A stretch of 63,994 nucleotides of DNA, filler included, from Dirinaria sp. TL-2023a (taxonomy: Eukaryota), in the NCBI GenBank assembly GCA_051941275.1. It is 3 parts of 3 records of this genome, joined end to end, with 100 filler letters (N's around TTAATTAATTAA, not from the genome) between each part and the next. Parts side by side here need not be neighbours in the genome. Positions count along the whole stretch, not along the records: positions 22,370 to 44,621 come from JAVEBF010000230.1; 2 more parts are not named here. One strand, 5' to 3'. The position numbers and the translations under genes are program-made. This document shows, one piece after another, positions 5,866-61,169 of this stretch. The notes beneath the pieces are model-generated. The model was not told the origin of the DNA. It made no database searches and saw only the letters and a program-made list of their open reading frames with translations. The number at the start of each line of letters is the position of its first letter. Position 1 is the stretch's first letter.

Positions 5866-7328
5866 GCCCCTATCTGTGAAGCGGGGCTGACTCTGGATAC
5901 GAGATGAATCGCGCACAAGGGCGACCGAGTGGAGCGGTAAATTGATCAAACGATGGTCGAAGCGGCACTGTGGAGTAAATATGAACTCCAGCCGTGTAGA
6001 AATTTGGTGTCCAGCACGATATAACCAATACCCTCATCCCCTCAATAAAGAGCAATGGGCGTTGTGATCCAATGTAATAGTAGCGACCGGAATTGGGGGG
6101 AAATAATGAAACTTAGTGAATGCGATTTGCGGTCATTGTTGAAGGGCGCATTGTCAACTAATAATCACTGGCCTATTGTTGGAAGGATATAACAATGTCA
6201 ATAGCATCAAGCGAGGATTTCAGACAGTAGTGAGAACATAGCAGGGAATACATTCAGAAAGGTCGTTGCGAGTGGGTAATGGATGTTTGGATCAGGCGAT
6301 CTTTGGCTCAAGCAAGGGAGGCGGTTGCCATGCAGTGGGTCTGGCCTGATCGATCTGATAACCGAGGAATAACTGTTGTGAAGGGCAAAGAGGGGTTGCC
6401 ATGGGTGGAGGAGGTGCATACGGTAATATTAATGATTCCATTCATAGATTGTATCAGGATTCTGTTACAACTGCTCAATGCATGGATCAGAGCCGTTTAC
6501 AGGATCAGGATTCGGTAGGATTTTAGACGCCCTGAGGCTCCCCTGACTCCTGAGGCTCGCCTGCACTCTGTAGGGATCCTTCCCGCCCGGGGCCGGGCCT
6601 TTCCTTGGTCTAAGGTATTATCTAATCGGCGCCTGCGCCCTAGTAGAAACCTCCACCACCTCACTAGCAGACGCAGAGAATGCCATCATTCCACGATCGC
6701 TAGCACAATCACAACTTGAGGAGTCGAAGATGCGGTCGTTGACCTAAATCCGCCCACTCACCATGTAGATGTCATCGAAGCCCTACTCCCACCTGCGTTG
6801 CACAGAATCACTTTTGGTATTTTGGTATTCGATATCAACATTCATACTGGAAAAAATTGGTCTTTGATAAAAGCATACTATACAGCTCGTCGAATGTAAC
6901 AAAAACAGTAATAGCTATTCTCTGGTTCTCGCACGTGATTGAGCTGCTTAGCACTTCCTCGCCCTCGACAAATAAATGATGCGGTCTAATCAAATCGAAA
7001 GAGTAGAAAGCACTGAAATACCAAACGCCAAGCCTGCAAATATGTCCCTGTAATTCCCCATGCAACGCTAAAAGTGGAAAGTAATAATCCCGTATCACAC
7101 ACATTCTTTCATAGCCATACCGAAAGAAAAAAAAAACACTAGTAGCTCCTGATGAGGCTCTCAAGCCGTGGGATAGCGGAGGCGAGATCCTTGAACCAGA
7201 GCTACTCCAAGCCAACAACGTCCTCCAGCTGTCTTCATGCAGGGTGAACGGTCAGGTATTCGAGGGAAGGAGACGATTGATTGGGGTAAAGGAATCCGGC
7301 GCGCCTGAATGGTAATAGGAAACTTGTG

Positions 7329-7482: not shown

Positions 7483-9183
7483 CTAATCGGCTTTCCCATC
7501 GCCTTCATTGGCCGCGTTGACTGCTCCTTTAGAAAACCGGAGCATCAATTTCTGGCACGGTATCATATTAGCCAACGAATTTACTTGCGCTATTGTGATC
7601 AGCTTACCGGCCTCGGGGATGGGTTCTCTTCGCCCGGATCCTGGCCTTTCCCCTCGTCCTCGTCACCATCATCCTCCTCATCCTCCTCCTCCTCCTCATC
7701 CTCGTCCCCTTCATCCTCGTCTTCCTCCGTTGTGGAGGAAAGTCCAGCATCATCCCAGTGATGCTTCCATTTCATGATTTCTTCGAAGCAGTCCGGGATT
7801 GACGTCTCCTCTGCGAAACCGAGTTCGATCGTCATGTACTTTTCTTTCATTTCGTACAGATTGTCCCTTTCCACCCGAAGGTTTTTGATTTGAATGGATA
7901 GGCGTTGAGCCTCCATTATTTTATCGACTAATGCTGCATGATTGCTTGCAGCCTCGTCGGTTTTCTCGCTCAGCGACTTGGTGAGTTGCCGCTCCCTCGT
8001 CCTGAGCTCCGAAAGCTCCTTGTCCTGCTGGGCCAGCCGGCCCTCAAGCTCGGAGAGGCGATTCATTGCTCCTTGATGATGGGGACAGACCGCGTGGAGG
8101 CATTGCAGCGACTGTGCGCAGATCGAGTGATCGCAACACACGTGGACCTGAGGCCCCTCGAGCTCCGAAATCCGCTTGATGAACGCCTCTCGGTAAAAGG
8201 GGCAGAGGTCGTGCCAGCATCGCCCGGATTGTAAGCACGCCGAATGGTCGCAGCAGGAGTGAGCTTGGGGTTGGGGTTGAGGTTCCGATTGGAATTGTAG
8301 GTTCACTGAAACTGGACCAAATGCTTTTCGAGTCTGCCTCTTGGCGACTCTACCTTTAGCTACTTTGCTTGCAACTCTCTCATCTTTGTCCACGGAGTTG
8401 GTCGAAAGCTTTCTCAGACCGGCGGCTTCCTCTTCCAAGGCTGCAATACGGTCTTTTTGAGCCGAATTTATCTTATGCGCCTTCTCAAGACGATACCGGA
8501 GGTCTGCCTTGTCTCGTAAATGTGCGCGCAAATCCTCGTTTTCTGTGCTGAGCAGTACGTTATTGGTGTCGAGCTTGTTTAGCTTTACCTTGGTCCAAAG
8601 GTGCTTTGATTTTTCGAGCTCCAAATCTCCCATTACATCCTGGACACGGTTGCTTTCTACAAGAAGGTCATCTTTGATCTTGCTGTAGATTTCGTCGTAA
8701 GCTTTCTTGGTCCGTTCGTGACTAGCCTTTTCGTCTGCAAGTTCTTGTCGAAGAAGCTCAAGTTTATCCTCGGATTGGCGTTGCAAGCGTTGGGCGAGCT
8801 CCATCCGCGCAAATGCATAGCCGGGATAAGCGAGCACGGACAAAATACCACCTACAGCAGTCGAAAGGTAGAACACGGGGTGCTAGGATCAATATTAGAG
8901 AATAGCTGGAAGCCGCTAGCGATTGACCTACTGTAGTGATGTGTACCATAGCGGCGACAAACAGGAGGCCCAAATTCGCCAGCAGTCGAACGAGAAAGTA
9001 GACGAAGTCTTGAAGCATGTCGAAAGCGATCTCAAAGGCGGGGATCCGATAGTGATGAGTTACGGCCCAGCATAGTGGCAAGCCGAAAACGAGGAGGGGA
9101 TTAAGCACTACGTTTGCGACGGACTCGTTGTATTGGCCGACGAAAAAGAAAACGAGGTAGACGAAAATCAGCCAGAGAACCAT
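7483..9183 (-). CDS. Orphan protein: N-terminal TM segments, long coiled coil, two Cys/His-rich repeats, acidic tract
   Basis: ORFs 8764-9183 and 7599-8876 join in frame via a 49-nt intron at 8931-8883 (GTAGGT..CTAAT..TAG; HITT|HPVFYLS). A second intron at 7607-7552 (GTAAGC..GCTAAT..CAG) adds the last exon KLMLRFSKGAVNAANEGDGKAD*. Confidence 0.65.
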
Positions 9184-9640: not shown

Positions 9641-10546
9641 AAAATGCTAGAGCTGTTGATGATACTGTCGTCTCTCAAAATCCAGTCTCAAGATTAGGAT
9701 AGACACAGCAGGAGCAGTAAAGGTAGGTTGTAAGTAAGTGAGCAGTGTGTCAAGGTTGATTGAAATCCAGGCACAGAAGATGGGTGGAGAAAGAAGAAAG
9801 AAGGAGGGAGGAAAGGTGTTGCGGAGGAAGAAGGTGGGAGATTAAATACTCCACACCTCGCCTCCGGGTAGGTAGCTGTGCAAATGAGAACAATACGAAT
9901 TGTGTTGACAATAGGGAGGTCACCAGGCATCCGTGGGCATTGTTAATAAGACACGGGACATGATATTGGGCCGCTATTGGCCGCTAGGCGAGTGGCGAAG
10001 TATGGAGTGGAGACAGTAAGGTAGGATAATACCTTGGGCATCCATGTCATATGGCCCGCTGTCGGCGCTAAGAACAGGGTGGAGTGCAGACAATGTGAAT
10101 GTGTTGACAATTAGGAGAGATTGGGCATGCACGTGCTTCAATTGATGTTAAAGTACATGTACATGGCCTACTAATGGGGGGAGCTGAACAATTGTTGCAG
10201 CAATGGAATGAAGCGTGCAGGGCATTGACAATAGGAAACATAGGCATCAATGAGTTTTGCAGACAGATGATTAATTAGTCCATTTCAACATTGTGATCGT
10301 GGAGGCCAAACACGCAGCATCACGATCAACGCCGTAGGTTTCTGAGCCTGTCCCAATTGCCCTGATTATTGGAGGTTCTTGAATCCAGGATCATATGAGA
10401 TTAGCTTCTTCATTTACCGAAAATTCTGCTATTATCCTAGAAAAAGTAATTGTGAGCAATTGAACCCATTTGAAGATTCTCGAAGATATTCTCAAAGATC
10501 TAACAGGCTGCTACGGCACCTCATTCCAGCTTCGGGAAAAGATCCA

Positions 10547-11790
10547 TTAGTACTCAATTGTGCTTTTGATAGCGTCATAGATACCTGGCCCTCAAAGATC
10601 AGTAAATACACTCATCTCAGCGCATGCCCTTCTACTCACGCGTGACGTCTGGGACGTTGTATTTCTCGAAGATGAGCCCCATGTGAGTGCACCAGCCTGC
10701 GACCCTTTGAACTGGGGCTTCGAGGGACAAGAACGCCCCTTCCTGTACAGCCGCTGCCACTTCGGCGCCAACGCCTGCATTGACCATGCTTTCATGAACG
10801 ACTACTGCACGACCGGTTTTTTTCACGCTCTCTAGGACCGTCTGCTTATCCCAGGGATACAGGGTCCGCAGGTCGATCAATTCGACACTAATATCAAGAT
10901 TCTTCTCAGCGGCTGCAATGGCTGCGGAGCATGTGTACAGCGGATGCCCATAGGAGATGATTGTGACATCTTTGCCCTTCTTCATCACTTCGGCCGTCGA
11001 GAGCGGTAACTCGTAGTATTCCGACGGTACTTGTTCTACAGCAGCACGGTAGAGGATCTTTGGCTCCATGAACACCACAGGGTCGTTGCAAGCAATAGCT
11101 GCCAGGAGGAGACCTTTCGCCTGGGATGGCGAACGAGGCATTACAACAGTCAGTCCAGGGATGTGGGTAAACAGCGACTCGGGTGATTGAGAGTGATATC
11201 TGGATTTCTAATGAGTCTTTGGATAGAAAGCGAGTAAACGAGGCTACTCACAGTGCCCCATGGCCTACGCTCCCAGTAGGCATTCTGACCACCAGTCCCC
11301 CCACATTACCACCGGTCGCTGCTTCTCTGTATCTGTACTTCGCTGCTTCGTTCACGAATTGATCGAAAGCTGGGTAAACATAGTCGGCGAATTGGATCTC
11401 AGCCACGGGTTTCATACCCTGCGCTGCACACCCAATTGCGAATCCCACGATTCCCTGCTCGCTCAGGGGCGTATTGAAGACCCTCTCTGAGCCAAATTCC
11501 GTAGCCAGATTCATACTACATCGAAACACCCCACCGAATGCCACATCTTCGCCGAAGACGAGCACACGCTCATCCGTGCGTAAGGCGTGGGTTAGCGCGC
11601 TATTGACCGCTTGGAAGAGGTTGAGGCGAGTCGAAGATGAGGTGCACGGCAGAGATGATGATTGCAGCGAGCGCTGCGTATGATGAAGGATGGGGGTTTT
11701 CGAATAGTCGATGGGGATGTTCAGGCGGGCTGAAGAGGCTTGGGTAGAGTAGAGTCGTCGTAGGCTTGAAGAAAGCGCCCGGGTACACAT
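10547..11790 (-). CDS. BCKDHB: Branched-chain 2-oxoacid dehydrogenase E1 beta subunit, mitochondrial (2 introns)
   Basis: [77 protein letters not shown]; last exon [12 protein letters not shown]; Arg/Ser-rich presequence. Confidence 0.93.
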
Positions 11791-22269: not shown

Positions 22270-22369
22270 NNNNNNNNNNNNNNNNNNNNNNNNNNNNNNN
22301 NNNNNNNNNNNNNTTAATTAATTAANNNNNNNNNNNNNNNNNNNNNNNNNNNNNNNNNNNNNNNNNNNN
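22270..22369. other. Assembly gap / artificial contig linker
   Basis: 100-nt block of N with a central TTAATTAATTAA (stop codons in all six frames). Confidence 0.97.
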
Positions 22370-35011: not shown

Positions 35012-36206
35012 ATGATGGCAGCTTCCTCCGTCTACAACGGGCCTATCAGTGTTATCCCTAACAATCCTGGCTCATCCGAACCCCCAGCTCAAGATGGTCC
35101 CTCTACGGAATTCCCTGCAGAACCTCCTCGGGTTGGTATGTCTTTCGACTCAATGCCATCCGCGAAGAAATACATCACCGAGTGGTGCGCTAGAGAACGG
35201 ATACCATATAGTGTTTGGAAAGCGGACAGACGATGCTGGGTCTTAACGTGCAAGGACAAGAACAATTGCATGTTCAGGCTGCGAGTCAAGAATATCGATC
35301 GACCGACCATCAGTATTCTCGAAGCCCACACTTGCTCGTCCCTGTCCTTCCGACGAACAGCACAAACTGGAGGACCCATAAAAGCGACCCCGTACAATTG
35401 GCCACATGATGCATCATTGAACTCGGGCACTACGGCTTTGGTGTTGATAGATATGCAGCGCGACTGTGCGTATTGATTCCAGGTCTATCTAGCAAACTGA
35501 GATGCTAATGAAGGCTCGAAGATAGTCTGCGCGCCAGGTGGCTTCACTGAACGTCAGGGCGATGACGTATCGCAATTACGAAAAATAATACCAGGGCTTC
35601 AACGATTACTGTACGCTTTCAGAGGCGCAGGGTTTCCAGTCTATCATACAAGAGAGGGTATGCGGCATCTATAGGCTTGTAAGCTACCACTGAACAGAGC
35701 CAGGTCATCGTCCCGATTTGTCTACTCTTGGCAGCCGCGAAGCTTTTCGTTCGCAAAACAACACTTCAGGCCTTGGAATAGGTTATCCCGGGCCTTTGGG
35801 CAGATTTATGATACGAGGCGAGGAAGGACACGACATCATACCCGAGCTGTATCCCGTACCTGGCGAACCTATCGTAGACAAGCCTGGCCGGAGTGCGTTC
35901 GCGCATACTGATTTCGCACTGCTGCTAAAGAACAAGGGCATTCAGAATCTTGTCGTGGCTGGCTTTTCAACAGATACTAGCGTCAACAGCACAATCAGAG
36001 AAGCAACAGATCGAGGGTTCGACTGTCTGCTTGTTGAGGACGGGAGCGTAGCTAAGGATGCAAGACTGCATAAAGCAGCCTGTGAGAGCATCGCTTTAGG
36101 AGGAGGAACATTTGGCGCGACTGGAAAGCTGCATCATGTAGCTGGACAGCTGGAATTCATGGCACACGATCGGCGGAACGGTGTTGAGAGCGGCATAGTT
36201 GGATAA
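35012..36206 (+). CDS. Fusion: MuDR/Mutator-type DNA-binding domain plus biuret-hydrolase-like isochorismatase domain with Ser in place of the catalytic Cys (about 362 aa, 2 introns)
   Basis: Exons 35012-35465, 35526-35657, 35704-36206. N-terminal PRVGMSFDS..AKKYITEW..YSVWKADRRCWVLTCKDKNNCMFRLRV..ISILEAHTC, then ATPYNWPHD..TALVLIDMQRDF..HTREGHRPDLS..IVDKPGRSAF..AGFSTDTSVNSTIREATDRGF. Confidence 0.85.
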
Positions 36207-36625: not shown

Positions 36626-36773
36626 GAGTTTGACCCCAAGACGTGCCGCTCCTCCTTCAGCATAACGGTGAAAAGGAGCAATGGAGAAATGCAAAACACA
36701 ACTTACCTGCAAGCTGTGATTGACATCTACCATAGCTCCTGTGTTAATTAGCTTCTCATAAGTCAGGTACACT

Positions 36774-38481
36774 ATGGCTACCAAGGACGAGGTCTTCGAT
36801 TCTGAGCTCAAAGAAGATGCCGTGCTCGAAAGCTTGGGCTACAAGCAGGAGCTCAAGCGATCCTTTGGCCTATTGGGCATGCTAGGCTTCAGCTTCAGCA
36901 TCGTAACAAGTTGGAGCGCCCTCGGAGGAGTCTTGATTGTTGGCGTTCTATCTGGAGGGCCGCCCGTCATGATATGGTCCTGGATTGGTATCAGCATATT
37001 CTCCCTTGCTGTCGCGTACTCCATGGCGGAAATTTGCTCGTGTTATCCTTTGGCCGGTGGACAATACTCATGGGTTGCGATACTCGCACCTCCAAGTGTC
37101 GCAAGAGGCCTAAGTTGGATTACAGGGTGGTTCATGATCGTCGGTATGGGCTATCTTGGGTCTCCTGACCGTTGAATGCTAAATCATATTCCATTCTGCC
37201 AGGAATTCTTGCCATGGGTGCGACGAATAACTTCATTGGAGCCAACTTCATCCTGGGGCAGGCTAACCTATCTTTTCCTGCGTACACTATTGAGCGCTGG
37301 CACACTGTCCTTGTGGCGTATTTGATCGCTTTCATCAGTACAGCCATCAATATCTACGGACCGCATCTATTGGACAAAATTTCTCGTGCTGCGATTTCCT
37401 GGAACATTCTCTCTTTCGTTGTCATCATTATAGTCCTGTTGGCTTGTAATGATCACAAACAATCCGCACATTTCGTATTCAAAGATTTCCAGAATTTTAC
37501 TGGCTTTGGCACGGCGTATGCCGCCATCCTTGGACTTTTGCAAAGCTCCTTCGGCATGTGTTGCTACGATGCCCCCGCCCATATGTGTGAAGACATGAAG
37601 AAACCGTCAACACAGGCGCCAAAGGCGATTGTCTGGTCGGTGTACATTGGTGCCGTGACTGGCTTCATTTTCCTTATTACTGCTACTTTCTGTATTGGCG
37701 ATATCGCGGCTACAGCAGAATCGTCAACAGGTGTCCCTCTCATCGAGATTTTCTACAACTCCACAGGTTCTGTTGCGGGGACCTGTGTTTTGTCCTCGAT
37801 GATAGTCGTTATAGACATTATCTGCGCCAACGCTCTACTCGCAGAAGGATCGAGAAGCCTGTATGCCTTTGCGCGCGACCACGGTCTGCCGTTTTCTGGG
37901 CTCTTTGCGAAGGTGGACCCGAAGCGACAAGTGCCAGTCTTTGCCATACTTCTGACTTGTCTTGTTCAAATTGCCTTGAACTCCATCTACTTTGGGACAT
38001 TGACAGGCTTCGACACCGTCATTTCAATTGCTACTGAAGGCTTCTGTATGCAGTTCAGTCCATACTTTGATTTATTTCCGGACTAACGTGGTTGTCAGAT
38101 CTTTCTTACGCAATGCTTTTGCTGGTCCGAATCATGGCATACTTCTCCGGACGAATGCGTGTGATCCCAGGCCCGTACACGCTAGGGCGCTATAGCGTCT
38201 GGCTTAACATTCTAGGCCTTTTGTTTTTGGTTTTCACCTCCATCACCTTTAACTTCCCCACAGTCAACCCAGTCGATCGAGAGAACATGAATTACACCAG
38301 TGCTGCCATTGGTGTGATCGCGTTGATAAGTATCGTGACCTGGGTAACCACAGGCAGAAAGCATTATTCTGGGCCGCAAGTTGCAGCCATAGATGCAGCT
38401 CCGGGCCAGCCGCAGGCCATGCACGGTCAGGAGCACTGGCATCTAAGTGATGATTATCATGATGGCCAGTCGAAGCAGTAG
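36774..38481 (+). CDS. APC superfamily amino acid/choline/GABA-type (ACT family) permease, 2 introns
   Basis: LESLGYKQELKRSFG, GGPPVMIWSW, SMAEICSCYPLAGGQYSWV, YDAPAHMCED, SRSLYAFARDHGLPFS, ENMNYTS. Confidence 0.9.
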
Positions 38482-40101
38482 CCGCAAAGCTACCTTGAAA
38501 AGCTTACACTAGTACTTTGGCGCAATAAACCGCGCTTGCTTTTCGCTGGAGTGGTCCAATCAACAAGCTACAATCTAGCCAATTGTTGGAAACCATTGGA
38601 TCATTCCCACTGCTATCGTGGCCCCAGAAGTGATCCAGCCGGCGCTCATTTGGCGCAGCGAGGGCAGAATATCCAAGCCTGACTGCTGATCTACATCCGT
38701 ACCTTGTTCAAATTGGGTCGATACTTGCGCAGCATCAAATATATATATAGCACGCTTTATACTGACTAATCTTTGCCCATGCCTCAATGGTCTGGGAAAT
38801 AAAATCAAGCCAAATCACACTCGTTCCACAGGGTACAGATCTGCAGGGGCTTACAGCTGCTGAAAGTCTTCCTGCACACCGTAGTCGTTCAACAAGAAGT
38901 CGAAACTTCACAACTAAGTGCTCACCTTCGCGTCAATGAACACTTTGCATTACATTAGTCTTTACATCTATCTGTTTAGGAATATACATCTCGAACGTGT
39001 GTGCGAATTCTCGATCCCGATTGCTGTTAGCACGCATCATCATTTTCAGCTTTATGTCAAGCCTCGCACGTATTCAAACAATCCACATCTCCATAGGTAG
39101 TATTCCAATCCAGTTGCCAATTTTCTCAAAATAGTGCTCCAGCTATTGCACGTCTTGATAGTCTGCCTAGGTTTGCAAACATGAAGTATTAATTCCGTCT
39201 CGACTACTATCTCGTAGTTCGTGCTGTGCTAGGCAATCTATCTTCTCTGTAGTGACAGGAGTCGGTTCCACGATCACGGGTGCTATGCGATTGAATGTAC
39301 CAGTATCGCATACCGCCTATCTGCTTACTAATTACCTTACGAAGAATCGATTCCAAAGTCGATTCTACTCAAGTACGAGTAAAGTATGAATGAGCTCTTC
39401 GTACGGGAACTAAATTTTGATTCCATCTTAGGAATTGAGTTTGCGCTTCCATTTCCTTAATTTTGGAAAACGATCCCACGATTCCCACCACAGTGTTAAC
39501 TTTTTCCCACTAGCTCTTCCATCCTTCTATGGAGATCATTTGCACCGCATGTCATCATTTTTCCGGACCATTAAGTATTAAATGAGCTTTATAATTGACA
39601 AAAACTTTTCTATATCTTGAGAACCGATATTTATTCATGGATGTTAGTCACTGTTGAAGTCATGTTTATTGAATTTCCACCGTTGGTGTTGGCGTCCGCC
39701 ATTGCCACTTGCAAGTCGTTCAAATTTGTAGGTAAAAACGGACCACTTCGAAGATGCGTACGAGGCATATCTTTGGGCGCCCTCGATGGCGGTATGGAGA
39801 AGTTCGGTCCATGATTGCACTCGTGAACGCTAAACTGTGATGGTAAATTCTACGAGGTAAAGTACCTTATCTCAAGCTTCGGTGCTAGAGTGCTGCTAAC
39901 GCAATTCAACAGTAGCCGAAAGCCTACTCGAGTCAACGCCCAGAATGCTGCATGAGCTAGACGTCGTACTGAGAATGTCGAGTCCCATCTCTCAGGTATA
40001 TTTAAGCTATCCAAGGCCTCTATTGATGTATTGTGAAATCCTAATCTCCTCTGATCTTCCTCCAACATAGATAGCCTTGACTCAATTTCTAAAATAGGGT
40101 A

Positions 40102-43100
40102 ATGATGATGGAGCAGCAACTCAAGCTCATTTGGTCTCAAGTATTAGATCGCCCGCCGTCCGACGTACATGATGATTCCAACTTCTTCAAGTCTGGGGGC
40201 GATTCGGTGATGGTAATCAAATTGGTTGGATTGGCAAATGAATCGAACATCAAGCTGGATGCGCAAACCGTATTCGAGAATCCTGTCTTTCGCGAGCTCG
40301 TGAAGAGGTGTCGAACATTTTCGGACGTCAAGCCTGAAGCTACCAGCCTCCAAAAGAGCATCAGCTTGATGAAATCATCCAAAATTCTCAATACAGGCCT
40401 TGTTCAATGTTGTGTGCCCCCAAACATGGTTGAGGATATAATACCTTGTTCACCATCACAGCAGGGTATGATGGAAGCCTCTCATGAATACGGCGCTTGG
40501 CTTGTGATCGGTGCTGTTGAGCTGCGAAAGGAAAACGAAGAGCGAGTTCGGGAAGCCTTCGAGGTCTTGCGGCAAAAGAACCCGATCTTCAGGACTAGAA
40601 TTATACAGCACGGAGTTGATCTATATCAGGTGATTCTCAAGGATAAGATCGAATGGCATGAGGAGCATACGGACCTGAGATCCTACATCTCCAGGGATTT
40701 GGCTCGTCGCATCTGTTACGGGGATGCATTGTGCAGGTATGCCATCGTTCGCGATGGGGCCAAATCATTTCTCGTGTTGACGCAGGTATGTATGCGTGTA
40801 AAAACCCCTCTAAGGTTAAAATCGTGTCCTTTTCCCTCTCTGATAAGCATTGTGTTTAGTCGCACGCCGCCCAGGATCGATGGACGCAGATGCTCTTCCA
40901 TCATGATCTCAGAGAATACGTTCGCGATCCGGCCGCTTTCCTCCAAAAACCAGACCGACCACCGTACAGCAAGTTCATCTCCTACATTTCTCCACTGGAA
41001 GCCGAAGGCGTGGCCTTCTGGCGCACAAAACTCCGAGGTCTTCGTCGTTATGATCTTTTTTTCAAGCCCGCGTCCCAGCCTATGCTCTTCCAGAGCAGGT
41101 CGACAATGAAGAAGGTCATAAGATACAACAAACCTCTAAACACGTCCATCACGTATTCAACCATCGTACATGTCGCGTGGGCATTGATGGTTGCCAATTT
41201 TGCACAGCACGATGACATCTTCTATTGCTCATCCCGAAGTTGTCGCCAGATGGCCATGCCAGGCGTTGAATCCGTCATGGGGCCTCTGTTGGCTGGAGTC
41301 CCTGTCCGGATACACCTGCACGGAAAGCAGTGCCTGTCGGAACTGCTACTCGAAACCCAAAATGACGATGTAAAGGCAGCGCGCTATGAGACTTTTGGTT
41401 TACAAGCAATGCTCGAACATTTCAAGCACAAAAAATTTCCACAGTGTGCCATTATACCTGAGTCTTTCCCTCGACACTCGTTCAATGAGGCTGTGTATCC
41501 CGGTGAGGCCGATGCAGAGAAGGACTGGCTAGGAAGTCCATACAGAGGCTTGAATGGCCAATACGGAATGTTTGTGGTGATGACCCTTGACGGCGATCTT
41601 CTGGACGTAGCCTCGTGTTGGGACCCTAGCTATATCGACTTTAAGCCAGTAGAGTTGTTGCTTGACCAATTTGGGGAGATGCTTGGCCGCGTCTTGAGCA
41701 GCTGTGAGTAGCGAAAAAAGGCGAACAAAGACCGTGCTTACAAGGCAAGTAGTGTCACGGAAAGAAGCCAGGATCGATGAATTCTGCCCCCATCTGAAAT
41801 TGTCCTCTTCGGCCAACATTCGAAGTTTCGAAGACGGAGATGCCAAAACGACACCTAGATCTTCTAATCCACCGCGATTCCCAGAGGAGATGGCTGGGAG
41901 AGGCACTTTGTCTAATGTTTTCGCCTCGAAAGTGCGCGGTTCCCAGGCAGTTATAATACCAACGCAACCCAATAGATCATTCACTTACGAACAATTGCAC
42001 GAACACGTTGCAAGCTTCCAGCAGGACTTGAGAGGTGAGTCAGAGCTCATCTTCCGCTACGACGGACCGTTCAAACAAACCAAAAAAAAAGAAAGGAAAA
42101 AAAAAAAAAAAAATTGGCAACTGCATACAATTTCATATCACATAGACAAAGAAAACATGCTGATGAGTCGCAGCACTGGGGATATCAAAGGGTTCCGTCG
42201 TCTCGTTAGCACTACGAAATTCGTATGAATTTGTTGTTGCGTTCCTCGCGACAACATGGCAACGAGCAGTCGCTGCGCCGCTGAACCCCGACTACAAGCA
42301 GCAAGAGTTCGAGTTCTACTTCCAAGATGCAGCTACTTCCCTGGTGTTGGTTCCTAGGGAATCTCTTCAACAAGACAGTGCTGCAGTAAGAGCGGGTAAA
42401 GAGCGTGGCGCGACCATTGCTGAGTGTTTCTGGGACGGTCAAAAAGTTGTCCTTGATGTGCAGCAGGAAAAACCGTCTTTCGCACTAGAAGAAAATGGGA
42501 TTGCCGTGAATGCGGAGAAAAACGATGTTGCGCTATTGCTGCACACAAGTGGCACCACAGGCAAACCTAAAGCAGTATGATACAGAATAGCGCCGCTACA
42601 CTAGCGGTACCAGATGCTGAAAAATAAACAGGTACCTCTAACTCACGGAAACTTGACCAGATCCATGGGTGAGTGCTTCTCTGTTTCCGTTGCTTGCGAG
42701 CCCTTTGATCTGATAAAATATAGAAAATATTTGTGCCACCTACGCTCTCGGGCCTGCAGATCGTACAATGCTGATCATGCCGCTGTTCCATGTCCACGGC
42801 CTGCTCGCCTCATTTTTAGCACCTCTTTGCTCCGGCGGCGCAATCATACTGCCAACCCGCCTCGATCCTTTGTTCTGGCAGCACATCGTCAAACATAACG
42901 CGACCTGGTACACCGCCACACCGACAATGCATCGGCTGATTCTCCAGTTCCCACCTCCGGATGCACTTCCGGAGATCCGCTTCATCCGTTCGTGTTCGTC
43001 CCAACTACCTCCGTCCCTGTTCAACGCACTTGAAAAAAAGTTCAGAGCACCGGTATTGGAGTCCTACGCAATGACCGAGGCGAGTCATTTAGTCACCTCG

Positions 43101-43787
43101 AACCTGCTTCCCCCTGGAAAAAGGCTGGCAGGGTGCGTCGGCCGTGCAGCGCCGGGTGTAGAACTCAGGATCCTTGACGACAACGACAACCCCGTACCGC
43201 AAGGCACCGAAGGCGAGGTGTGTATCCGGGGGGAGAACGTGATGAAGGGGTACCTCGACAACCCGTCCGCCAACGCGTCTTCGTTCACTAGACAGACGAA
43301 CTACTTCCGCACCGGCGATCAGGGCAAGTTGGACCACGACGGCTATCTAACGCTCACCGGTCGCATCAAGGAGCTGATCAACAAGGGTGGTGAAAAAATC
43401 TCGCCGGTCGAGCTGGATAATACCATCGGTCAACATGAATCGGTCGAGGAGGTCGTGACGTTCGCCATCGACGATGAGATGTACGGGCAGGATGTAGGTT
43501 GCGCAATCAAGACGAAGAAAGGCGACGCTCGATTGGGAAAGCTGGAATTGAAGGACTGGCTCAGGGAGAGAATTGCAGCGCATAAAATACCGAAAGAGGT
43601 GAGTGAGAAGGAAACTTTGCGCTTTGAACCTTTGATGATGAAAATGGTTCCCTCCCTTCTTTTCTTTTGCTAACGTGATCGCTAGATATGGTTCGTAGAC
43701 GCGATTCCGAAGACGGCGACAGGCAAAGTCCAGCGCAAGGTCGTTGCAGAAGCGATGGTGAAATCAACCATCAATTCTCGGCTTTAG
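40102..43787 (+). CDS. NRPS-like protein with T-C-(oxalate-CoA-ligase-like A) order and C-terminal PTS1 SRL (about 1074 aa if spliced as one gene)
   Basis: Exons 40102-40785, 40860-41703, 41753-42034, 42174-42574, 42632-42668, 42724-43598, 43686-43787 give one open frame. T: NFFKSGGDSV. C: EDIIPCSPSQQGM, IFRTRI, SHAAQDRW, GPLLAGVPVR. Ligase: APLNPDYK..EFEFY, HTSGTTGKPK, PLFHVHG, RFIRSCSS, YAMTEASH, FRTGD, PKTATGKVQR..SRL*. Confidence 0.78.
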
Positions 43788-44621: not shown

Positions 44622-44721
44622 NNNNNNNNNNNNNNNNNNNNNNNNNNNNNNNNNNNNNNNNNNNNTTAATTAATTAANNNNNNNNNNNNNNNNNNNNNNN
44701 NNNNNNNNNNNNNNNNNNNNN
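44622..44721. other. Assembly gap / artificial contig linker
   Basis: Same 100-nt N + TTAATTAATTAA block as at 22270. Confidence 0.97.
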
Positions 44722-45446: not shown

Positions 45447-47525
45447 TTAATGGTGCTCATGATGATGGTGCGTCCAGCGTCTCTTCGGGCCTCGCTCACG
45501 CTCACTCGGAGCCTGAGCAGGTGGCGCGCCCCAAAGCCCGCCATTGTTCGGTGGACCTTCGTTCTCTCCCTCCGTCGCTAGCTTCGGCGCTGGTTTTGCA
45601 GTCGGCTCTGTCGTATTTATGTCCCTGGTCGTAAGTGATTCACGTAATGGTGACTCTTTATGCACCGGTTTTGGCTCCGCTGCAGGTTGTGAAGCGGCAG
45701 TTGCAGGCTTGCTCCACAGACCAGAGGACGGAGCGGGGACGGGTTTACTCCACAGGCCATTGGATCGAGGTGTGGCGGCGCTCGCGCTGCGTTGAAGTGC
45801 GGATGCACCGTTAAAGCCTTCGGACTCGGGTGTAAAGCCTCCATCTACTGAACTGAAAGATGAGCTGGTAGAAGCGAGTGAGGCAGATCGGTACCGCTCT
45901 GGTATATGAGACGACGATATGCTAGTGGATCGCCGACTTGGAGTTGTGGATCCGCCTCTGAGGTGTTCAGTGGAGGCCATGATTTTAACTTCGTAGTCTT
46001 CCGATATTCCGACGTAAATGGAGGACCTTCGCCGCCGTGAGGTAGGTGAGTTTGGCTCTGGAGAGCGAGGTTTCATGCTATTCATATTCGGTCTGCGGAC
46101 TGCCATGGTTAAAGAAGCCATGCCTGCATCTAACAATACCGGCTGGTTCGTCAAGGCGCCGATAAGAGCGTTACACCCAGCAGAATGAGTTACCAGCACC
46201 AAGACAGTGTCAATATCTTCATCAGTCTCGTTATCGAGCGATGAAAAATCGGCTTGGCCTTCATCAATAGCAACCGATGACCTTGTATTGGCCTGCTGAT
46301 ACCACAAGATCATCTGTTGCAAGCCGCGCCGGAAGCGCCTGTGCATCGAGATCCACTCCTCACCAAACTGGCCTCCATCCGGCCACTGCTGGGGTGGGCG
46401 CACGCTGTCCCATTTGTAGTCAATGTCCAAGCAAGCCTCTTTTGCATGGGATACATATCCTAATGGAATAGGAGCTGAGGGAGAAATAGCGTAAGATGGA
46501 ATAGGTGATACGTAGCCATCAGCACTACTAGCGCTTTCCAGATCCTTTAGAGGACCTTGAAATGATCGATGAGCTAGACTTCCAGCGCTGCTATGGCTGC
46601 TTGATCTATTAAGCCGCGGCAGGCTGCGATTCAAGCCCGACATCCGTGTCAAAGGTCCCTCGCTATCATTCTGAGTAGACGTAATCGCGTCTATCGAGCC
46701 TCCTCCCCACCCTCCTGGGAAATTTCCAGAAGCAGCCTTCTTTGGACTGTTCGCCTGGTTTCCGTGAGGCTTTTCCTTTAGCAGGTTTGCTTTCGCTCCC
46801 GCTATCATCATAACTGAATCTGGAGGATGGGTTATGTCCTCAAAATAGCCCGGGGAAAGCCACTCTCCTAGGAAAGCATCTATGCGCATACAGGGCTTTG
46901 GGTACTCTTTCGGGTTTCCCTCGATACTTGGCGAGTATTGATCTTCGAACTCTTCTGGCTCCGAAATCGCTGACAGCACAGGGGAGTTCAAGTGGTCCAT
47001 GGCCCTAATATGTGGAGAGCCCGAGTGCATGGCATGTGGAGCATGGGTGGGGTTAGACTTCCCATTCGCGTTGCCAGCAGCCCTTAAGGACGCTTGTGTC
47101 TCGACAAGGCCAGCGCTCAGTGCAACTGAGGTCTGCAGACAGCGTAAGAAGGGAGAACTGTGTATGATAACACGGTGCTTCCGGTGTTCTAGGCTCTGCA
47201 CTCCATGCCCGCCATGGCCATCTGAATTCCGGCCGTATCCATCCAAAGGGTTGATGGTTGAGTGTTTTAAGGCTGCAGGTGGTAATTCCGCTGCTACTTC
47301 CCTACTGTGTATGATGTTGGCGATACGGGCGCCAAGAGCATGAGATTGCCTCCATCCACCGTAAGTCAACGGAGGATCGTAAGGCGTAGGTGAAGTAAGA
47401 TGCCATTGCTTGTCTGCCGCGTCTAAACGTGCACCGTGCCTGGTACCAAGTCAGCACAGGTTTAAGCTCTTGGTCTTTGGGAGCACAAACCTCGCAACAA
47501 TAATTACCGCTGGAGGCTTCCCCAT
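45447..47525 (-). CDS. Histidine phosphatase (phosphoglycerate mutase-like) family protein, 1 intron
   Basis: MGKPPAVIIVA|RHGARLDAADKQWHLTSPTPYDPPLT, HSSPFLRCLQT, DAFLGEW, VLVLVTHSAGCNALIG. Confidence 0.88.
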
Positions 47526-48756: not shown

Positions 48757-50565
48757 CTAAGCACTCGCACTCGCATCTGTCTTTGGCTTCAGATTTTTCC
48801 AAGGCGCGAACAATGAAACAATAAAACAGATCCCAGCCAGTGCAATAACGACTGCGTATGTCACGCGAAGACCGTGCATATAAGCAATCAGCACGGAGCC
48901 AATCTGGTTAGCGGGAAAGACCTTGCGGAGCTCCGTTGCTCCGGTGGCGATAACAAGAGCCGGATCAATATCAGGTGCCACTTCTTTGATTCTATCGATA
49001 AGCTGGTTGGTGAACGCAGCTTGTCCACCTGTCACAAAGATTGCTCCGCCCAGAGTCTGGAAGAATAAAGCCATGGATGAGGCTACCGAGATGTCAGCCA
49101 TGTCGACGGACGCTTGTGCAACAGCAATCGGTGTGTTCGTCCCAAGACCAATACCGATGCCGGATATCACTTGATATCCGATCCACTTGTTTGCTCCAGA
49201 GCCAATGTCGAGCGTATAGAGCAGGCCTGCACCAACGACACTCAGTACAGCTCCAAGAATTAGGAATGGGACGTATTGGCCTGTTGCTGTGATGAGGCCA
49301 CCAGAGACAACCGCGAAAATACTGGTCCCAAGCACTAGCGGTAGGTTGCGAACCCCAGACTGTGATGCAGAGACATTATCCACAGATTGAAAGTATATCG
49401 GAAGGTAGTAGAGGAGGACGAAGAAGCCGCCACAAAAGAAGAAGGTGTAGATGAACGCGACTTGGAGTTGGCGTTTCTTAAGTAGCCGAGGGATCAGTAA
49501 CGCGTATTCGCCAGCAAAATATTCGTTCACCCCAAAAGCGATCGTAATCAGAACAAAACCGACTATTGTACCAATCACGTCCGCAGAGTCCCAGGCCTTG
49601 GTCACCCCACCCCATTGGAGGGCAAGACAGATGCAAACCACAGCAGCCATGATTGTGCTTGTCCCAACAGGATCCATGTGGAGGAGCTTCTCCTTCCAAG
49701 TCGCCGGGGCCGGTTTTGCAGAAGGAGGCACTGTGAAGGTGAGGAGAATGATACCAGCTGCGAGCCCACCAACGGGAAGGTTAACATAGAAGCACCACCT
49801 CCAAGAGACATTTTCCGTAAACGCACCCCCGATCAACGGTCCGATCACAGAGGCGATTCCGTAAGTTCCACCAAGGATACCTATGAAAGCTGGCCGTCTT
49901 GACGGGGGTGCAACGAAGGCCATCAGAGTGTAAGCCCCAGAAGCTATTCCTGCGCCCCCGACTCCAGCGATTGCACGGCCCACAATCAAAGTCACTGACG
50001 ATTGTGAAACGCCGCAAATCAGGGAACCGAGCTCGAAGATAAAAATCATTACCAGGAAGGCCCACTTGACAGGGAAATATTTGTAAGCTTTGCCAGCGGT
50101 GCTCTGAAAGCTACATCATATGTATCAGCAGCGGACTGCTTTCAATGAAGAGATCCAAACTCACCTAGCCAGAGTAAGGAAAAATGCGGTACCGTACCAT
50201 CCAACATCGTTCAGAGAGTGGAATTCGTCGGTAATTCGGGGAATTGCCGTTGCAATAATGGTCATGTCAAGAGACACTAAGAAAATCGACAGGGCCAGGG
50301 CAAGAAGGATGAAGAAGAGCCTGCCAGCTTTCGGGTATTCTGCTTCAGATGCGGTCGATGCCACGTCGTTGAGGTTCCCATCAAGGCTCTTTTGCTTCTC
50401 ATCACTGATAATATCATCATTGCTGGCTACGGCCTCAGAGTGTATACCTTGATGCCTGCTGAAGGAAGGGTCATTCGAGCCATTTGTTGAAGATGCTGCG
50501 GTCATGCTTAAATCATGGTTCGGTTGCTGATCAATAATAGGACCTGAGAAATCATTCGGTGCCAT
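48757..50565 (-). CDS. MFS DHA2 (14-TM) efflux transporter, AflT/GliA-like, 1 intron
   Basis: [89 protein letters not shown]. Confidence 0.93.
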
Positions 50566-50783
50566 CAGGAATTGTGCTACAAGTGCTTGTAGAGGATAGA
50601 GAGGCCGTGGTAAAGAGAATTTTGACTTTGAATTCCTGCCCGCCAATCAATTTTGAGAGTTACACTAGTGGATCGAAAGAAGCTTTAGCAAAATGGACGG
50701 CGAGGGAGGAGAGGTCATTGCTCAGTATGGAGAACAATGACTACAGACTACCTAAGGTATGATGCCTCACAAGGCTGTGATCG

Positions 50784-56493: not shown

Positions 56494-58263
56494 TTACTCC
56501 TTGATGACGTTGGTGACTTTGACTCGTACTGAAAATTCGCCATCCTTTGGTTGCCCAATGCCTAGCTCGCGATAGATGCGGATATTCTCTTCCGTAGTTT
56601 CGTATAGCTCCATGTCGAATCGACGAACAAAAGAAGCTATGGTCATATACAATTCCGCGAGAGCCAAACTGGGGGGACGAGCGAAGTCAGCGGACCGCAC
56701 TTTCACACCATGACAACGGTGCATGTTCGTTAGATATTGTGAACACAGAGAAGACTCACTTCATACCCAGGCAAATTCTGCTTCCTCTAGTAAACGAAAC
56801 GAGGTATTTGTTCAGATTCTGCCCTCGCTCAGTAGCTTGCATCCATCGCTCAGGCTTGAAAGTCTCTGGACTAGGAAACACTCCTGGGTCCATGAGCACG
56901 AAATAGCCGGACATACTGACGGGTGACTGCATTACACGAAAGTGGTCAGTCCATCTGCAGCCAGAATGTTCAACGATGGAATAGCTACATACCCCTGGCG
57001 GGATTACAAGGTCCTTGTATGTTAGTGACTCTGTGGGTGCGACCCGTGTGGACCGAAAAATTGGGCCATATGAAAGTCGTATCGCTTCGTTCACAACACC
57101 ATTCTACGCAAAGTAAGTTTTGTCTCTCGCAGTCCTTTTGGCTCACTGGTCCAATACGAAGGTAGATGACATACTAGGTAAGGAAGTTGCTCAAGCTGTG
57201 GCCAAGATACCTCTGTAGTAGGAGTGGGCATCAAAGGTCGCAGCTCTTCGCGGAGCTTTAGTAAGAGACGCTTGTTCTGATAAAGATGGAAGGCCGCCAA
57301 TGTCAATGTCCTTGCTGTGGTTTCAGTACCTGCGACGACCACAATCAATCCCTCGTCTTCCAGGCGGCGAGGAGACCTCTCTGCGGGTGGCACGCTGGGG
57401 TCACTCAAGGCGTCAAATATCGTTTTTCTCGAAGCTTTGGCAGTACTCTTCTCAGCAGTGGATTGTTGCGCTACTAAATCTTGCATGTCTAGCACTGCTG
57501 TAGCCCCTGGCCTGATTTTGCCTAGAAGCCACCGGGGCATGGCCCTCAACATGGTGCCTAGAAAAGGAAAGAATCTGTTGACGTGAACAAAAGTAGAGAT
57601 CTCGTTCAGGGCCTGCCGGATGTCATTTTTGAAATTCTCATCGTCCAAAAACCCGGAGCTGACACCCCAGGAATACTGTGATATTAAATCGGCTGTCAAG
57701 GCAGCAAATGCATCGTCCAATTGGACCACAGATTTATCTGTATGAGCCTTCTCAAATCGCTGCATGAGTTTTGACTCTTTCTCATGCATCATGGGCGAAA
57801 GCTCTACTACGGACTTCTTGGAGAAAAAGTTGTTTAATAAACCTCGACGAAACCGATGAAGATCATGGCCGATTGTGGCGATCATGGAATATGGGAACCC
57901 AAAGATACCAACGAATTTGGGGTCCTTTTCCCGCTTTCTGGAAGCCGGAGCGTATACTTCGTCATAAAAGTGTGGATCTTTGATATGGAGTTCGCGAGGA
58001 TTGATGCGCACAACCGGACCTGTGCGTAAGTGAGCATGATTTGACTACACTATTCGCCGAAATATCTCACCGTATTCTTGGTGCATCTTCTCAATTTCCC
58101 AGATGTACATTCCATGACGGATGACATCGTGATAGAACTCATAGCCATGCGTTATAGCTGCCAGCTTGGGACCTGGGACATGGCGAAGAGGGTGGAGATA
58201 GAGACGATAGAAAGCCCTACCAAGAAAGTACGCACAACCGAGGCCAACTAACAGGAGCCACAT
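56494..58263 (-). CDS. Cytochrome P450 (trichodiene oxygenase/CYP58-like), 4 introns
   Basis: HPLRHVPGPKLAA, YG|PVVRINPRELH, I-helix VAGTETT, EAIR, FKPERW, heme motif FTRGSRICLGM|NLALAELY. Confidence 0.93.
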
Positions 58264-59372: not shown

Positions 59373-61169
59373 ATGGAGTCTACCGCCGTGCTGATCTACT
59401 GCCTTTTGGCATTTGTCCTTTATCGCTTGTCAAGAGCAATTTACAACCTCTACTTCCATCCATTGCACAAATTTCCGGGGCCTAAAATTGCAGCTGCAAC
59501 GTCTCTGTATGAATTTTACTTTTCCATCGTCCGCGATGGAGAATTCATGTGGGAATTGGAAAGAATGCACAATAAGTACGGTAGGGGAAAATCAAACTGA
59601 ACTTCACGTCCTAGGCACCACGCGGTCTGACATACTCAAGGCCCTATTGTGCGTATAAATCCTGAAGAGCTTCATATCAGCGATGCTTCCTTCTACAATG
59701 AGATATACGCTGGCAATCCCAAGAAGGTGGATGGCCATTTGCCATTCACACGATCCACCGGTGTCTCCAAATCTATGTTTGCCGCAGTTGATCACAATCT
59801 GCATCAATTCCGTCGCAACATTCTAGCCAACTTCTTCTCCAAGCGGTCCATCACCAACATCCAGCCTCTCATCCAGGGCCACATTGAACGGCTTCTTGCG
59901 AAGCTGAAAGAAGCTTCTCACGATGGCACAGTGGTAAACCTAACCACACTTATGGCCGCTTTTACAGCCGATGTGATCTCCCATTATTCCTATGGTGTCT
60001 CTTTGGGCTGCCTTGATGGCAAATCCGAGAACATCTTGACCGATGCAACACAGGCAGTGCTCTCTTTTGGGCACTGGCTCAGGTTTATCCCTATCAGGTT
60101 TTCGAACATGAAGAAGCTCCATCCCAGATTTGTCGAGAGGACTTTTCCCAAGGCGGCAACCGTTCTGAAGACGCACAGGAGAATCAGCTCACTTGCACTC
60201 GAAGTACTTAACGCTGAAACCCCCAAAAATTCTAAAGAAACCATGTTCACGGCGCTGGCTGATCCTGAACTACCCGCTGAAGAGAGAACCCTTGCCCGCC
60301 TCGAGGACGAGGGATTCGTTGTCCTCGCAGCTGGCACAGAGACTACCGCTTATTCTCTAAGTGTAACATTGTTTCACTTGCTAAACAACCCCGACATCCT
60401 ATCTAAACTATACGATGAAGTCAAGACAGTTATGCCCGAACCATCAACCCGTCCACCATTGCCGGTGCTAGAGAATCTGCCTCTACTAGTAAGCGCTTCC
60501 AATCTCCCCTGCTTATGCTTATGTACATTTTCCTAACTGGTCGCGACCTACAGAAAGGGGCCGTCAATGAAGGTCTTCGGCTATCAATGGGCACATTTAC
60601 TCGACACCCTCGCGTAGCACCTGATCGAGTCCTGCAATACAAGGACTGGGTCATCCCTGCAGGGGCAAGTTTCGACCACCAGCACATCATGTTGGCGTGT
60701 TTGTATTCTGACAAAATGGCACAGACACCCTGCAGCACAGCCACGTACTTCGTGCATACAGACCCGAATGTTTTCCCGAATCCCAAATCCTTTGATCCAT
60801 GGCGCTGGATCCGTGCCGCGGAGCAAGGGCAGCATTTGGAGAGCAATCTCGCCCTGTTTTCGAAAGGAAGCAGGTCGTGTCTTGGAATAAAGTATTGTTC
60901 CCCCCTCCTCCCTTTCCATCATCTCCTTTACTACACTTGTTCCTCCTTTCCGTAACTATAGATATATGGTGCTAAGATCCTTGATTGCGGTACACAGCAT
61001 GGCCTACGCGGAAATGTACATGGTAATCGCGCAATTGACCCGCCGCGTCAAGATGGATCTGTACAACACCACCATTGACTGCGTCGATCCATACCGCGAC
61101 CACCTGATTGTGGTTCCGAAGAACACGGACGGCGTGAGGGCTACTGTTCTGGCTGTCGATGCCTCGTGA
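59373..61169 (+). CDS. Cytochrome P450 (paralogue of the upstream one), 4 introns including one GC-AG
   Basis: [54 protein letters not shown]|..MAYAEMY. Confidence 0.93.

Follow-up and report, generated by a model that had tools for sequence, protein, structure and literature searches.

The region at positions 40102-43787 (plus strand) of a 63,994-nucleotide (nt) stretch of DNA from Dirinaria sp. TL-2023a (assembly GCA_051941275.1; the whole stretch is called the window below) raises the question whether one gene or two are present, and what could be made by a protein in which an oxalate-CoA ligase stands behind two domains of a nonribosomal peptide synthetase (NRPS). The window is eukaryotic DNA, with fungal genes and short GT..AG introns. 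When rebuilt by hand and by script, the region forms one seven-exon gene with an uninterrupted frame of 1074 codons (MMMEQQ...NSRL*), which encodes in this order a carrier (T) domain, an NRPS condensation (C) domain, a linker of about 50 residues and, in the place of an adenylation (A) domain, a ligase of the Pcs60/AAE3 type with the C-terminal end SRL. The explanation that we favour, with moderate confidence for the whole of it, is that this single spliced gene would specify a 1074-residue one-protein oxalyl transferase; that it has its place in a small family of fused T-C-A proteins of filamentous ascomycetes, as yet uncharacterised, among whose known members it diverges most; and that the family's ligase is derived, as a fast-evolving branch, from the peroxisomal oxalate-CoA ligase.

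The first part of the question concerns the end of exon 2 (40860-41703), which carries the C domain from its SHAAQDR motif (40860-40880) to the domain end. Beyond it, the C-domain frame closes at a TAG codon (41709-41711). Excision of 49 nt, from GTGAGT (41704) to TAG (41752), joins the C-domain frame to that of the ligase, and the in-frame stop is then part of a phase 1 intron (intron 2, 41704-41752, GTGAGT..CTTAC..TAG). The GTGAGT is the only consensus donor near the stop and is located 5 nt before it. On the other side, two acceptors are found in tandem, an AAG ending at 41749 and a TAG ending at 41752, 3 nt apart and both in frame. The use of one or the other of these acceptors (41746-41752) could yield proteins one residue apart in length, with SSLVSRK or SSLSRK.

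Exon 3 (41753-42034) contains the linker, a 15-residue insert with an internal ATG, and the ligase N-terminus. Only 178 nt separate the stop from this internal ATG (41890-41892, MAGRGTL). No stop occurs in the 63 codons on the 5' side of the internal Met, a situation met in only 752 of 20000 shuffles of the same stretch, and these codons are devoid of any ATG, so that they can be translated only through the splice. Furthermore, they include IDEFCPHL (41773-41796), which matches the sole conserved motif of the family linker, [IV]x[DE]hCPH[LIV], at an equal distance from the end of the C domain. When exon 3 was compared with the relative P0158 by BLASTP, the match began at linker residue 4, within this motif and upstream of the Met.

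The same junction was then read in relatives. P0157 is a single open reading frame (ORF) of 754 residues that runs from the T-domain Met through to the ligase P-loop, and in the metagenome locus L002 one open frame (bases 9998-11023) connects the C domain, by way of the linker, with the ligase. Since both frames are open across it, the fusion junction does not depend on the prediction of an intron. In the loci L003 and L001, which are identical over the stretch shown and were counted as one taxon, the junction is occupied by a 67-nt phase 1 intron (GTAAGT..CTGAT..TAG) located within one codon of the 49-nt intron of the window. The sequence-only reading had proposed that a 49-nt intron connects the T-C part to the ligase via an open linker, and the comparison with these relatives bears this out. 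As judged from sequence comparison, a fused mRNA is very probably real and a major product of the locus; retention of intron 2 would yield a 511-residue T-C protein, and a free ligase made from the internal start may be a second product.

In order to establish whether this architecture occurs elsewhere, the C-domain exon was used in an exhaustive search, which gave 5481 matches at E<=0.001 (1535 at E<=1e-10), mostly NRPSs. The best 150 of these 5481 comprised 145 multi-module NRPSs of at least 2288 residues and five short proteins, P0013 (73% identity), P0071 (51%) and P0110, P0123 and P0126 (34-35%). The ORF of P0071 breaks three residues past the point where intron 2 starts in the window. 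In P0110, P0123 and P0126, the C domain continues within the same predicted protein into the linker and a Pcs60-like ligase. A word-index search with the same exon had retrieved, among longer proteins, one unrelated NRPS only; the family surfaced in the exhaustive search.

A second search found 10 relatives, nine of them with both AMP-binding and Condensation. Four are complete (1004-1068 residues) and contain all four Pfam families: P0153 of Oleoguttula mirabilis (LTR36_007438), P0154 of Pseudocercospora fuligena, P0156 of Zasmidium cellare (PRZ48_000035) and P0158, an nr entry labelled Quercus suber, which groups with the Oleoguttula protein and is thus probably fungal. Four more proteins of 1038-1083 residues came from a third search, among which those of Cercospora beticola (P0175) and C. 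kikuchii (P0230, CKM354_001119200). P0165 is another of the annotated, uncharacterised fused proteins. With these annotated proteins, the window gene shares the T-C-linker-ligase order, the Pfam set, the linker motif, the xHxxxDR motif and the oxalate pocket. It differs from them in that its C domain is only 30-35% identical to theirs, whereas its ligase exon is 63-69% identical, and in that they have neither an end resembling a peroxisomal targeting signal type 1 (PTS1), nor the internal Met, nor the 15-residue insert. The linker is variable in length throughout the family. The architecture had at first not been recognised from characterised enzymes; at least eight annotated fungal proteins, uncharacterised and in several cases from Dothideomycetes, share it. 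Its unfamiliarity is a matter of missing study and not of missing data, as the proteins are already public as hypothetical proteins. In the literature searched, which left most subscription journals outside, no characterised T-C-A enzyme and no oxalyl-loading NRPS was found.

The gene requires five introns besides intron 2, on which the sequence-only reading was silent: 40786-40859, 42035-42173, 42575-42631, 42669-42723 and 43599-43685. When these are removed, the ligase aligns with 94 stand-alone relatives without a gap in any of their 184 invariant columns. Intron 3 (42035-42173, 139 nt, GTGAGT..CTGAT..CAG) lies where the ligase alignment is gapless; a long A-rich tract is found within it at 42084-42115. 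Exon 4 (42174-42574) carries the N-terminal subdomain of the ligase, with APLNPDYKQQEFEFY and the P-loop TSGTTGKPKAV, and scores 80.8 bits with the Pfam family AMP-binding. Removal of intron 4 (42575-42631, 57 nt, GTATGA..CAG, without a CTRAY branch motif) joins KPKAV to PLTHGNL, which follow one another directly in all relatives. The spliced frame then includes exon 5 (VPLTHGNLTRSM, 42632-42668), bounded by intron 5 (42669-42723, 55 nt, GTGAGT..CTGAT..TAG), and proceeds to exon 6 (42724-43598), the ligase core with PLFHVHG, RFIRSCSS, YAMTEASH and seven of the eight oxalate-pocket residues. After intron 6 (43599-43685, 87 nt, GTGAGT..CTAAC..TAG), also defined by the spliced frame, exon 7 (43686-43787) provides PKTATGKVQRK, whose catalytic Lys is the eighth pocket residue, the SRL end (43776-43784) and the stop codon (43785-43787). 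All the ligase motifs named beforehand, PLFHVHG, RFIRSCSS, YAMTEASH, APLNPDYKQQEFEFY and the terminal NSRL*, were found in the places given for them.

By Pfam, the ligase half gave AMP-binding matches of 80.8 and 144.5 bits and an AMP-binding_C match of 28.3 bits (cut-off 24.5). Compared with the PDB, its largest exon matched three oxalate-CoA ligases best, 8aff (E 2e-99; Pcs60p by its title in the fold-search listing), 6qjz of grass pea (1.4e-83) and 5ie0 (4.1e-80), the last of which is Arabidopsis AAE3 (PMC8905533). The next enzyme type, a feruloyl-CoA synthetase, followed at 1.4e-34, and the NRPS A domain of gramicidin synthase at 1e-27. The oxalate pocket of AtAAE3 is described as shaped by V215, H216, C288, S289, A313, M314, H319 and K500, among which S289 and H319 are specific to oxalate ligases (PMC8905533). 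With the numbering verified on the 5ie0 alignment, the window retains all eight residues. The same is true of the 7 other complete fused proteins and of 94/94 stand-alone fungal ligases; in this count P0110 and P0152 end before the last residue, and the ORF of P0160 runs into an intron. The PDB matches and the pocket uphold the earlier assignment of this domain to the Pcs60/AAE3 oxalate group and not to the amino-acid A domains.

The nearest relatives of this ligase are themselves fused. Among the 120 matches listed for the 291-residue ligase exon, the five best were fused proteins (66-69% identity) and the best stand-alone ligase reached 65%, fungal stand-alone orthologues lying at 60-65% over this exon. 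For the trees, 94 of 111 stand-alone rows were kept; the 17 dropped, probably cut predictions, were outside 505-560 residues or without an AKL, SKL, PKL or AKI end. The 11 fused ligases, that of the window included, occupied one side of a branch with a support of 100 in FastTree (105 rows), and the same split received a support of 100 in IQ-TREE under LG+C20 (50 rows, the 11 fused and 39 random stand-alone ligases); as both trees are unrooted, the fused offshoot is to be read either as an old paralogue or as a fast-evolving orthologue. Of the 21 columns in which fused and stand-alone ligases differ, the window ligase agrees with the fused ones in 15; of the 184 that are invariant in the stand-alone ones, it keeps 157. 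Because it groups with the fused ligases in the trees and by these diagnostic columns, we consider that it is a member of the fused, faster-evolving offshoot with the oxalate pocket kept, and not the ordinary PCS60 of this fungus.

Within the fused clade the window branches first, and its branch is the longest (0.89 in IQ-TREE). This length, to be compared with a median of 0.1, brings in the possibility of a decaying copy, that is, a once-fused gene broken by a stop-bearing insertion at 41704-41752 and becoming a pseudogene. The 27 changes in the 184 stand-alone-invariant columns could be taken in the same sense; they are all substitutions, without gaps. However, the 1074 codons contain no other stop or frameshift, the catalytic motifs of T, C and ligase domains are all intact, and the interrupting stretch is bounded by canonical GT..AG and agrees in phase, and to within one codon in position, with the intron of a family member. 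We regard decay as very improbable.

The two ends of the ligase deserve separate attention. The protein terminates in SRL, a tripeptide that agrees with the PTS1 consensus, and an AKL, SKL or PKL terminus is found in 92 of 111 stand-alone ligases. The internal Met is located in a 15-residue insert, SSNPPRFPEEMAGRG (41845-41892), which is missing from all ten aligned family members. The SRL end suggests that this copy works in peroxisomes and, taken with Met 41890, that the window copy stayed close to the ancestral stand-alone ligase. These two retained marks of a free peroxisomal enzyme fit the basal place of the window in the clade.

Some of the observations made on this gene weigh against the one-protein reading. 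The only branch-site candidate of intron 2 is CTTAC, which is not CTRAY. The context of the internal Met, MAGRGTLSNVF, resembles the N-termini of stand-alone ligases (MSGTTLSNSF in P0183), and with the PTS1-like end it indicates that the ligase may be expressed separately. A PTS1-like tripeptide is present in 0/7 other complete family members, so that the SRL end, proposed from the sequence as a PTS1, fits the pattern of such a signal but is not a family trait. Finally, long-branch effects on the placement of the window ligase are possible. As for the branch site, the concern that had been raised about it is correct as far as the motif goes; it is a lesser objection in view of intron 4, which is also without CTRAY and must be real because it splits the invariant KPKAV|PLTHG.

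Taken as a whole, such features would suit an arrangement of two genes, a 511-residue T-C protein ending at 41709-41711 and a separate peroxisomal oxalate-CoA ligase paralogue starting at ATG 41890, which could be a split pair acting in trans like the fumonisin proteins Fum14 and Fum10, or merely unrelated neighbours. Two genes would account for a stop codon in frame, for a weak branch site, for a Met where stand-alone ligases start and for an SRL end comparable to the AKL, SKL or PKL of most of them. In addition, homologues of FUM10 and FUM14 are described as adjacent yet separate in four Trichoderma species, where they lie side by side and share one tree (PMC12821873). On the other hand, a terminator, a promoter and a 5' untranslated region would need to fit in 178 nt, and these same nucleotides are an open frame without an ATG of its own, bearing the conserved linker motif of the family. 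A consensus donor is located 5 nt before the stop, with two in-frame acceptors beyond it, the ligase clusters with fused rather than ordinary ligases, and the junction of the relatives is either open or holds an intron of the same phase. Two genes thus appear distinctly unlikely, and the single fused T-C-A protein is retained for what follows.

The N-terminal half of this protein begins at ATG ATG ATG (40102), about 100 nt downstream of a TATA-like element, TATATTTAA (39997-40005, plus strand), read from the sequence and of putative function; such an element had been pointed out near 39997 and is indeed present. Exon 1 (40102-40785) encodes the start, the T domain and the N-terminal piece of the C domain. 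The T domain was identified by Pfam PP-binding at residues 5-69 (nt 40114-40308) with 49.4 bits (cut-off 20.8), in agreement with the carrier motif FFKSGGDSV noticed beforehand at the N-terminus (residues 28-36), and its Ser35 is encoded at 40204-40206. GGDSV is invariant in 11/11 rows of the alignment (the window and 10 family members), in which the N-termini also align. This is the only T domain of the protein by Pfam, and none follows the A domain.

Intron 1 (40786-40859, 74 nt, GTATGT..CTGAT..TAG) is located just 5' of the catalytic motif of the C domain. Its removal gives a gapless alignment with the relatives (LVLTQ|SHAAQDRW versus IVWTK|THAVYDRW), and in L002 the ORF is broken at the same spot. 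That a C domain follows the carrier, as the sequence-only reading had it, agrees with the Pfam Condensation match of 32.1 bits in exon 2, marginal to the cut-off of 30.6; the piece in exon 1 scored 21.0 bits, below the cut-off, and the homologous ORF of L001 scored 72 bits. In the C3 motif xHxxxDR, SHAAQDRWT in the window, His, Asp and Arg are invariant in 11/11 rows. Compared with HHxxxDG, the second His and the Asp are kept, and the first His and the Gly are replaced in the 11 family rows. An atypical C-domain subtype of fungi is described as having SHxxxDxx(T/S) as its typical pattern (PMC10212144). From their conserved residues, the T and C domains look working.

The window protein aligns end to end with P0153, for which an AlphaFold2 model was built from 15 sequences (mean predicted local distance difference test, pLDDT, 65.5); the fold described here is that of P0153. 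The T domain was modelled with confidence. In the C domain (93-530), the means of 10-residue blocks were mostly 75-93, with a dip to 57-68 at about 290-330. The linker (534-564) is disordered, and the ligase half was largely poor, with block means below 50 at about 714-782 and mostly below 50 from about 834 on. When compared by Foldseek, the model was collinear with NRPS C-A and cross-module structures (SrfA-C, LgrA, PvdL PCP2-E2-C3-A3) at E values of about 1e-40, and its ligase part overlaid Pcs60 at 39-42% identity.

What such a protein could do follows from its domain order, its intact catalytic residues and its oxalate-type pocket, all of which are seen directly. First, the ligase would adenylate oxalate, as its pocket predicts. 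By analogy with NRPSs, the oxalyl group would then be passed to the phosphopantetheine arm of its own T domain, or of that of a partner subunit, instead of or besides CoA. In NRPS logic, a T domain before a C domain occupies the donor position. From there, the T domain would hand the oxalyl thioester to the C domain, which would move it onto a hydroxyl or an amine of a free acceptor, with formation of an oxalyl ester or amide. The logic would be that of Fum10 and Fum14, which attach tricarballylate esters to fumonisins, here combined in a single polypeptide and adapted to a two-carbon diacid.

The fusion may also be accepted without this reaction. The ligase could still produce free oxalyl-CoA, like Pcs60 in oxalate breakdown, with the T-C part engaged otherwise; the C domain might take oxalyl-CoA directly, in a BAHD-like manner, or the T domain might be loaded by another enzyme, so that the fusion would serve co-location only. 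The retention of 157 of the 184 invariant columns of stand-alone CoA ligases, the whole pocket included, is what would be expected in this case, and a variable linker of about 50 residues, disordered in the model of the relative, is unlike the tight C-A platform of NRPSs. However, a carrier with an invariant serine, kept before the C domain in 11/11 members, would make little sense without ever being loaded. The derived changes of the fused ligases, among which the loss of two lysines (alignment columns 454 and 474; in the window, that of column 474), would fit a new thiol acceptor. For these reasons we hold free oxalyl-CoA production to be unlikely as the main function and prefer transfer of oxalyl through the T domain.

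The two lysines belong to the C-terminal subdomain of the ligase (alignment columns 454 and 474; window 43470-43598). They are near-invariant in the 94 stand-alone ligases and replaced by alanine in most fused ones; the window keeps the lysine of column 454 and has lost that of column 474. Their loss hints at a changed thiol acceptor and may relate to CoA binding.

The surroundings of the gene were examined in the window and in two relatives. In L002, the T-C-A gene is adjoined by a divergent gene of the major facilitator superfamily (MFS), and a lyase gene is found about 3 kb further (spans 5411-6184 and 7588-8268, minus strand). This lyase matches the 2,3-dimethylmalate lyase of A. niger (3e-98) and the oxaloacetate acetylhydrolase of Cryphonectria (5e-97). 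It has the motif IFSFA, as the acetylhydrolase does, whereas dimethylmalate lyase has IFPFA; we take the Ser of IFSFA to be the serine that distinguishes acetylhydrolases. The L002 locus may thus be a small oxalate-based gene cluster, and an oxalate-forming enzyme beside a T-C-A gene would fit the use of oxalate by the fused protein, for this one relative only. The MFS gene is common to L001 and L002 (72% identity).

The surroundings of the window gene point the other way. Neither the window nor L001 has a counterpart of the L002 lyase, and the window neighbours hold no oxalate-forming lyase. The MFS gene of the window (48760-50115 or, with a wider span, 48760-50646, minus strand) was considered as an orthologue of the transporter of the relatives and rejected, the identity being 31% over 74 residues; no link between it and the T-C-A gene was found.

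The upstream part of the window contains mostly housekeeping genes. Directly upstream of the T-C-A gene are an isochorismatase-family gene (35694-36203, plus strand) and, between the two, an amino-acid permease gene (36762-38478, plus strand); that this permease could supply an amine acceptor is speculation. Downstream, a 667-codon ORF (45450-47450, minus strand) matches no Pfam family at E<=0.01 and His_Phos_1 faintly (E 0.018). Two divergent cytochrome P450 genes (56759-58044, minus strand; 59631-60952, plus strand) are located about 13 kb downstream of the T-C-A gene, and no link between them and this gene was found. A cluster of the FUM type was rejected: among the 75 ORFs of the 64-kb window (65 of at least 120 amino acids and 10 further ones, a scan that genes with many short exons could escape), no polyketide synthase, aminotransferase or other FUM-type gene was present. 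Two identical patterns of 44 N, 12 bases and 44 N occur at 22270-22369 and 44622-44721, the second about 830 nt past the stop of the T-C-A gene.

When the family is considered together with these loci, a broader picture can be drawn, which we advance only tentatively. The family would act as a self-contained oxalyl transferase that makes hitherto undescribed oxalyl esters or amides, in one lineage beside an oxalate-forming lyase and an exporter. The window copy would represent a living intermediate in the capture of a ligase as an A domain, and this single locus might yield a free peroxisomal ligase as well as the fused enzyme.

Oxalate is a major fungal acid, involved in metal chelation, pH control and attack on plants. 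To our knowledge, it is not known to be incorporated into fungal natural products as a building block. If oxalate is loaded on the carrier and passed to the C domain, this would point to a class of oxalylated metabolites for which no one has yet searched. For NRPS engineering, the enzyme would then be a compact acyl transferase of three domains that handles a two-carbon diacid, and it would show clearly how a housekeeping CoA ligase is recruited as an A domain. Several members of the family occur in crop pathogens (Cercospora, Pseudocercospora).

Among known systems, the first to be compared is the pair Fum14 and Fum10, and the primary paper on ester formation by Fum14 is said to be that of Zaleta-Rivera (2006). 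Fum14 is described as a T-C bidomain protein, and formation of the tricarballylic esters of fumonisins is ascribed to its C domain (PMC10212144, PMC12821873), and fum10 of A. niger is annotated as 'Peroxisomal-coenzyme A synthetase' (PMC5016791). A precedent for the window gene, whose architecture had at first not been recognised, does exist, as the same three activities are known as a split pair, Fum14 (T-C) and Fum10 (PMC5016791). In both cases the carrier is N-terminal to the C domain; in Fum14, as proposed here, the C domain esterifies a free acceptor with a small polycarboxylic acid; and a Pcs60-like ligase is involved, for Fum10 by its annotation only (PMC5016791). The likeness rests on domain order and annotation, the proteins being set side by side by description and not by sequence. 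They differ in that Fum14 and Fum10 are separate polypeptides, whereas the window and its relatives have one T-C-A chain, and in that the window pocket is that of oxalate ligases (8/8) and does not suggest a tricarboxylate.

With Pcs60/AAE3 (8aff, 5ie0, 6qjz), the window protein has in common the ligase core, an identical oxalate pocket and a PTS1-like C-terminus. However, those enzymes stand alone with about 515 residues, whereas the window ligase is fused behind T and C domains in a chain that comparative evidence puts at 1074 residues. It also belongs to a separate, faster-evolving clade, set apart by 21 diagnostic columns, whose other members have lost the PTS1.

Compared with canonical NRPSs (C-A-T; dimodular LgrA, PvdL PCP2-E2-C3-A3), the fold of P0153 is collinear, and a T domain that precedes a C domain is where the donor normally sits. 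In contrast, the A domain of the window is of the CoA-ligase type (2e-99 with Pcs60 versus 1e-27 with gramicidin synthase A), no T domain follows it, and the C-A linker is long and, in the P0153 model, predicted to be disordered.

Finally, the synthesis of β-N-oxalyl-L-α,β-diaminopropionic acid (beta-ODAP) in grass pea ends with a BAHD acyltransferase, of chloramphenicol acetyltransferase-like fold, which transfers the oxalyl group to an amine. As is proposed for the window protein, oxalate is activated in that pathway by an AAE3-type ligase (PMC8905533). The two systems differ in that grass pea uses two free enzymes and a diffusible oxalyl-CoA, with no carrier domain, whereas in the T-C-A protein ligase, carrier and C domain would be held in one chain.

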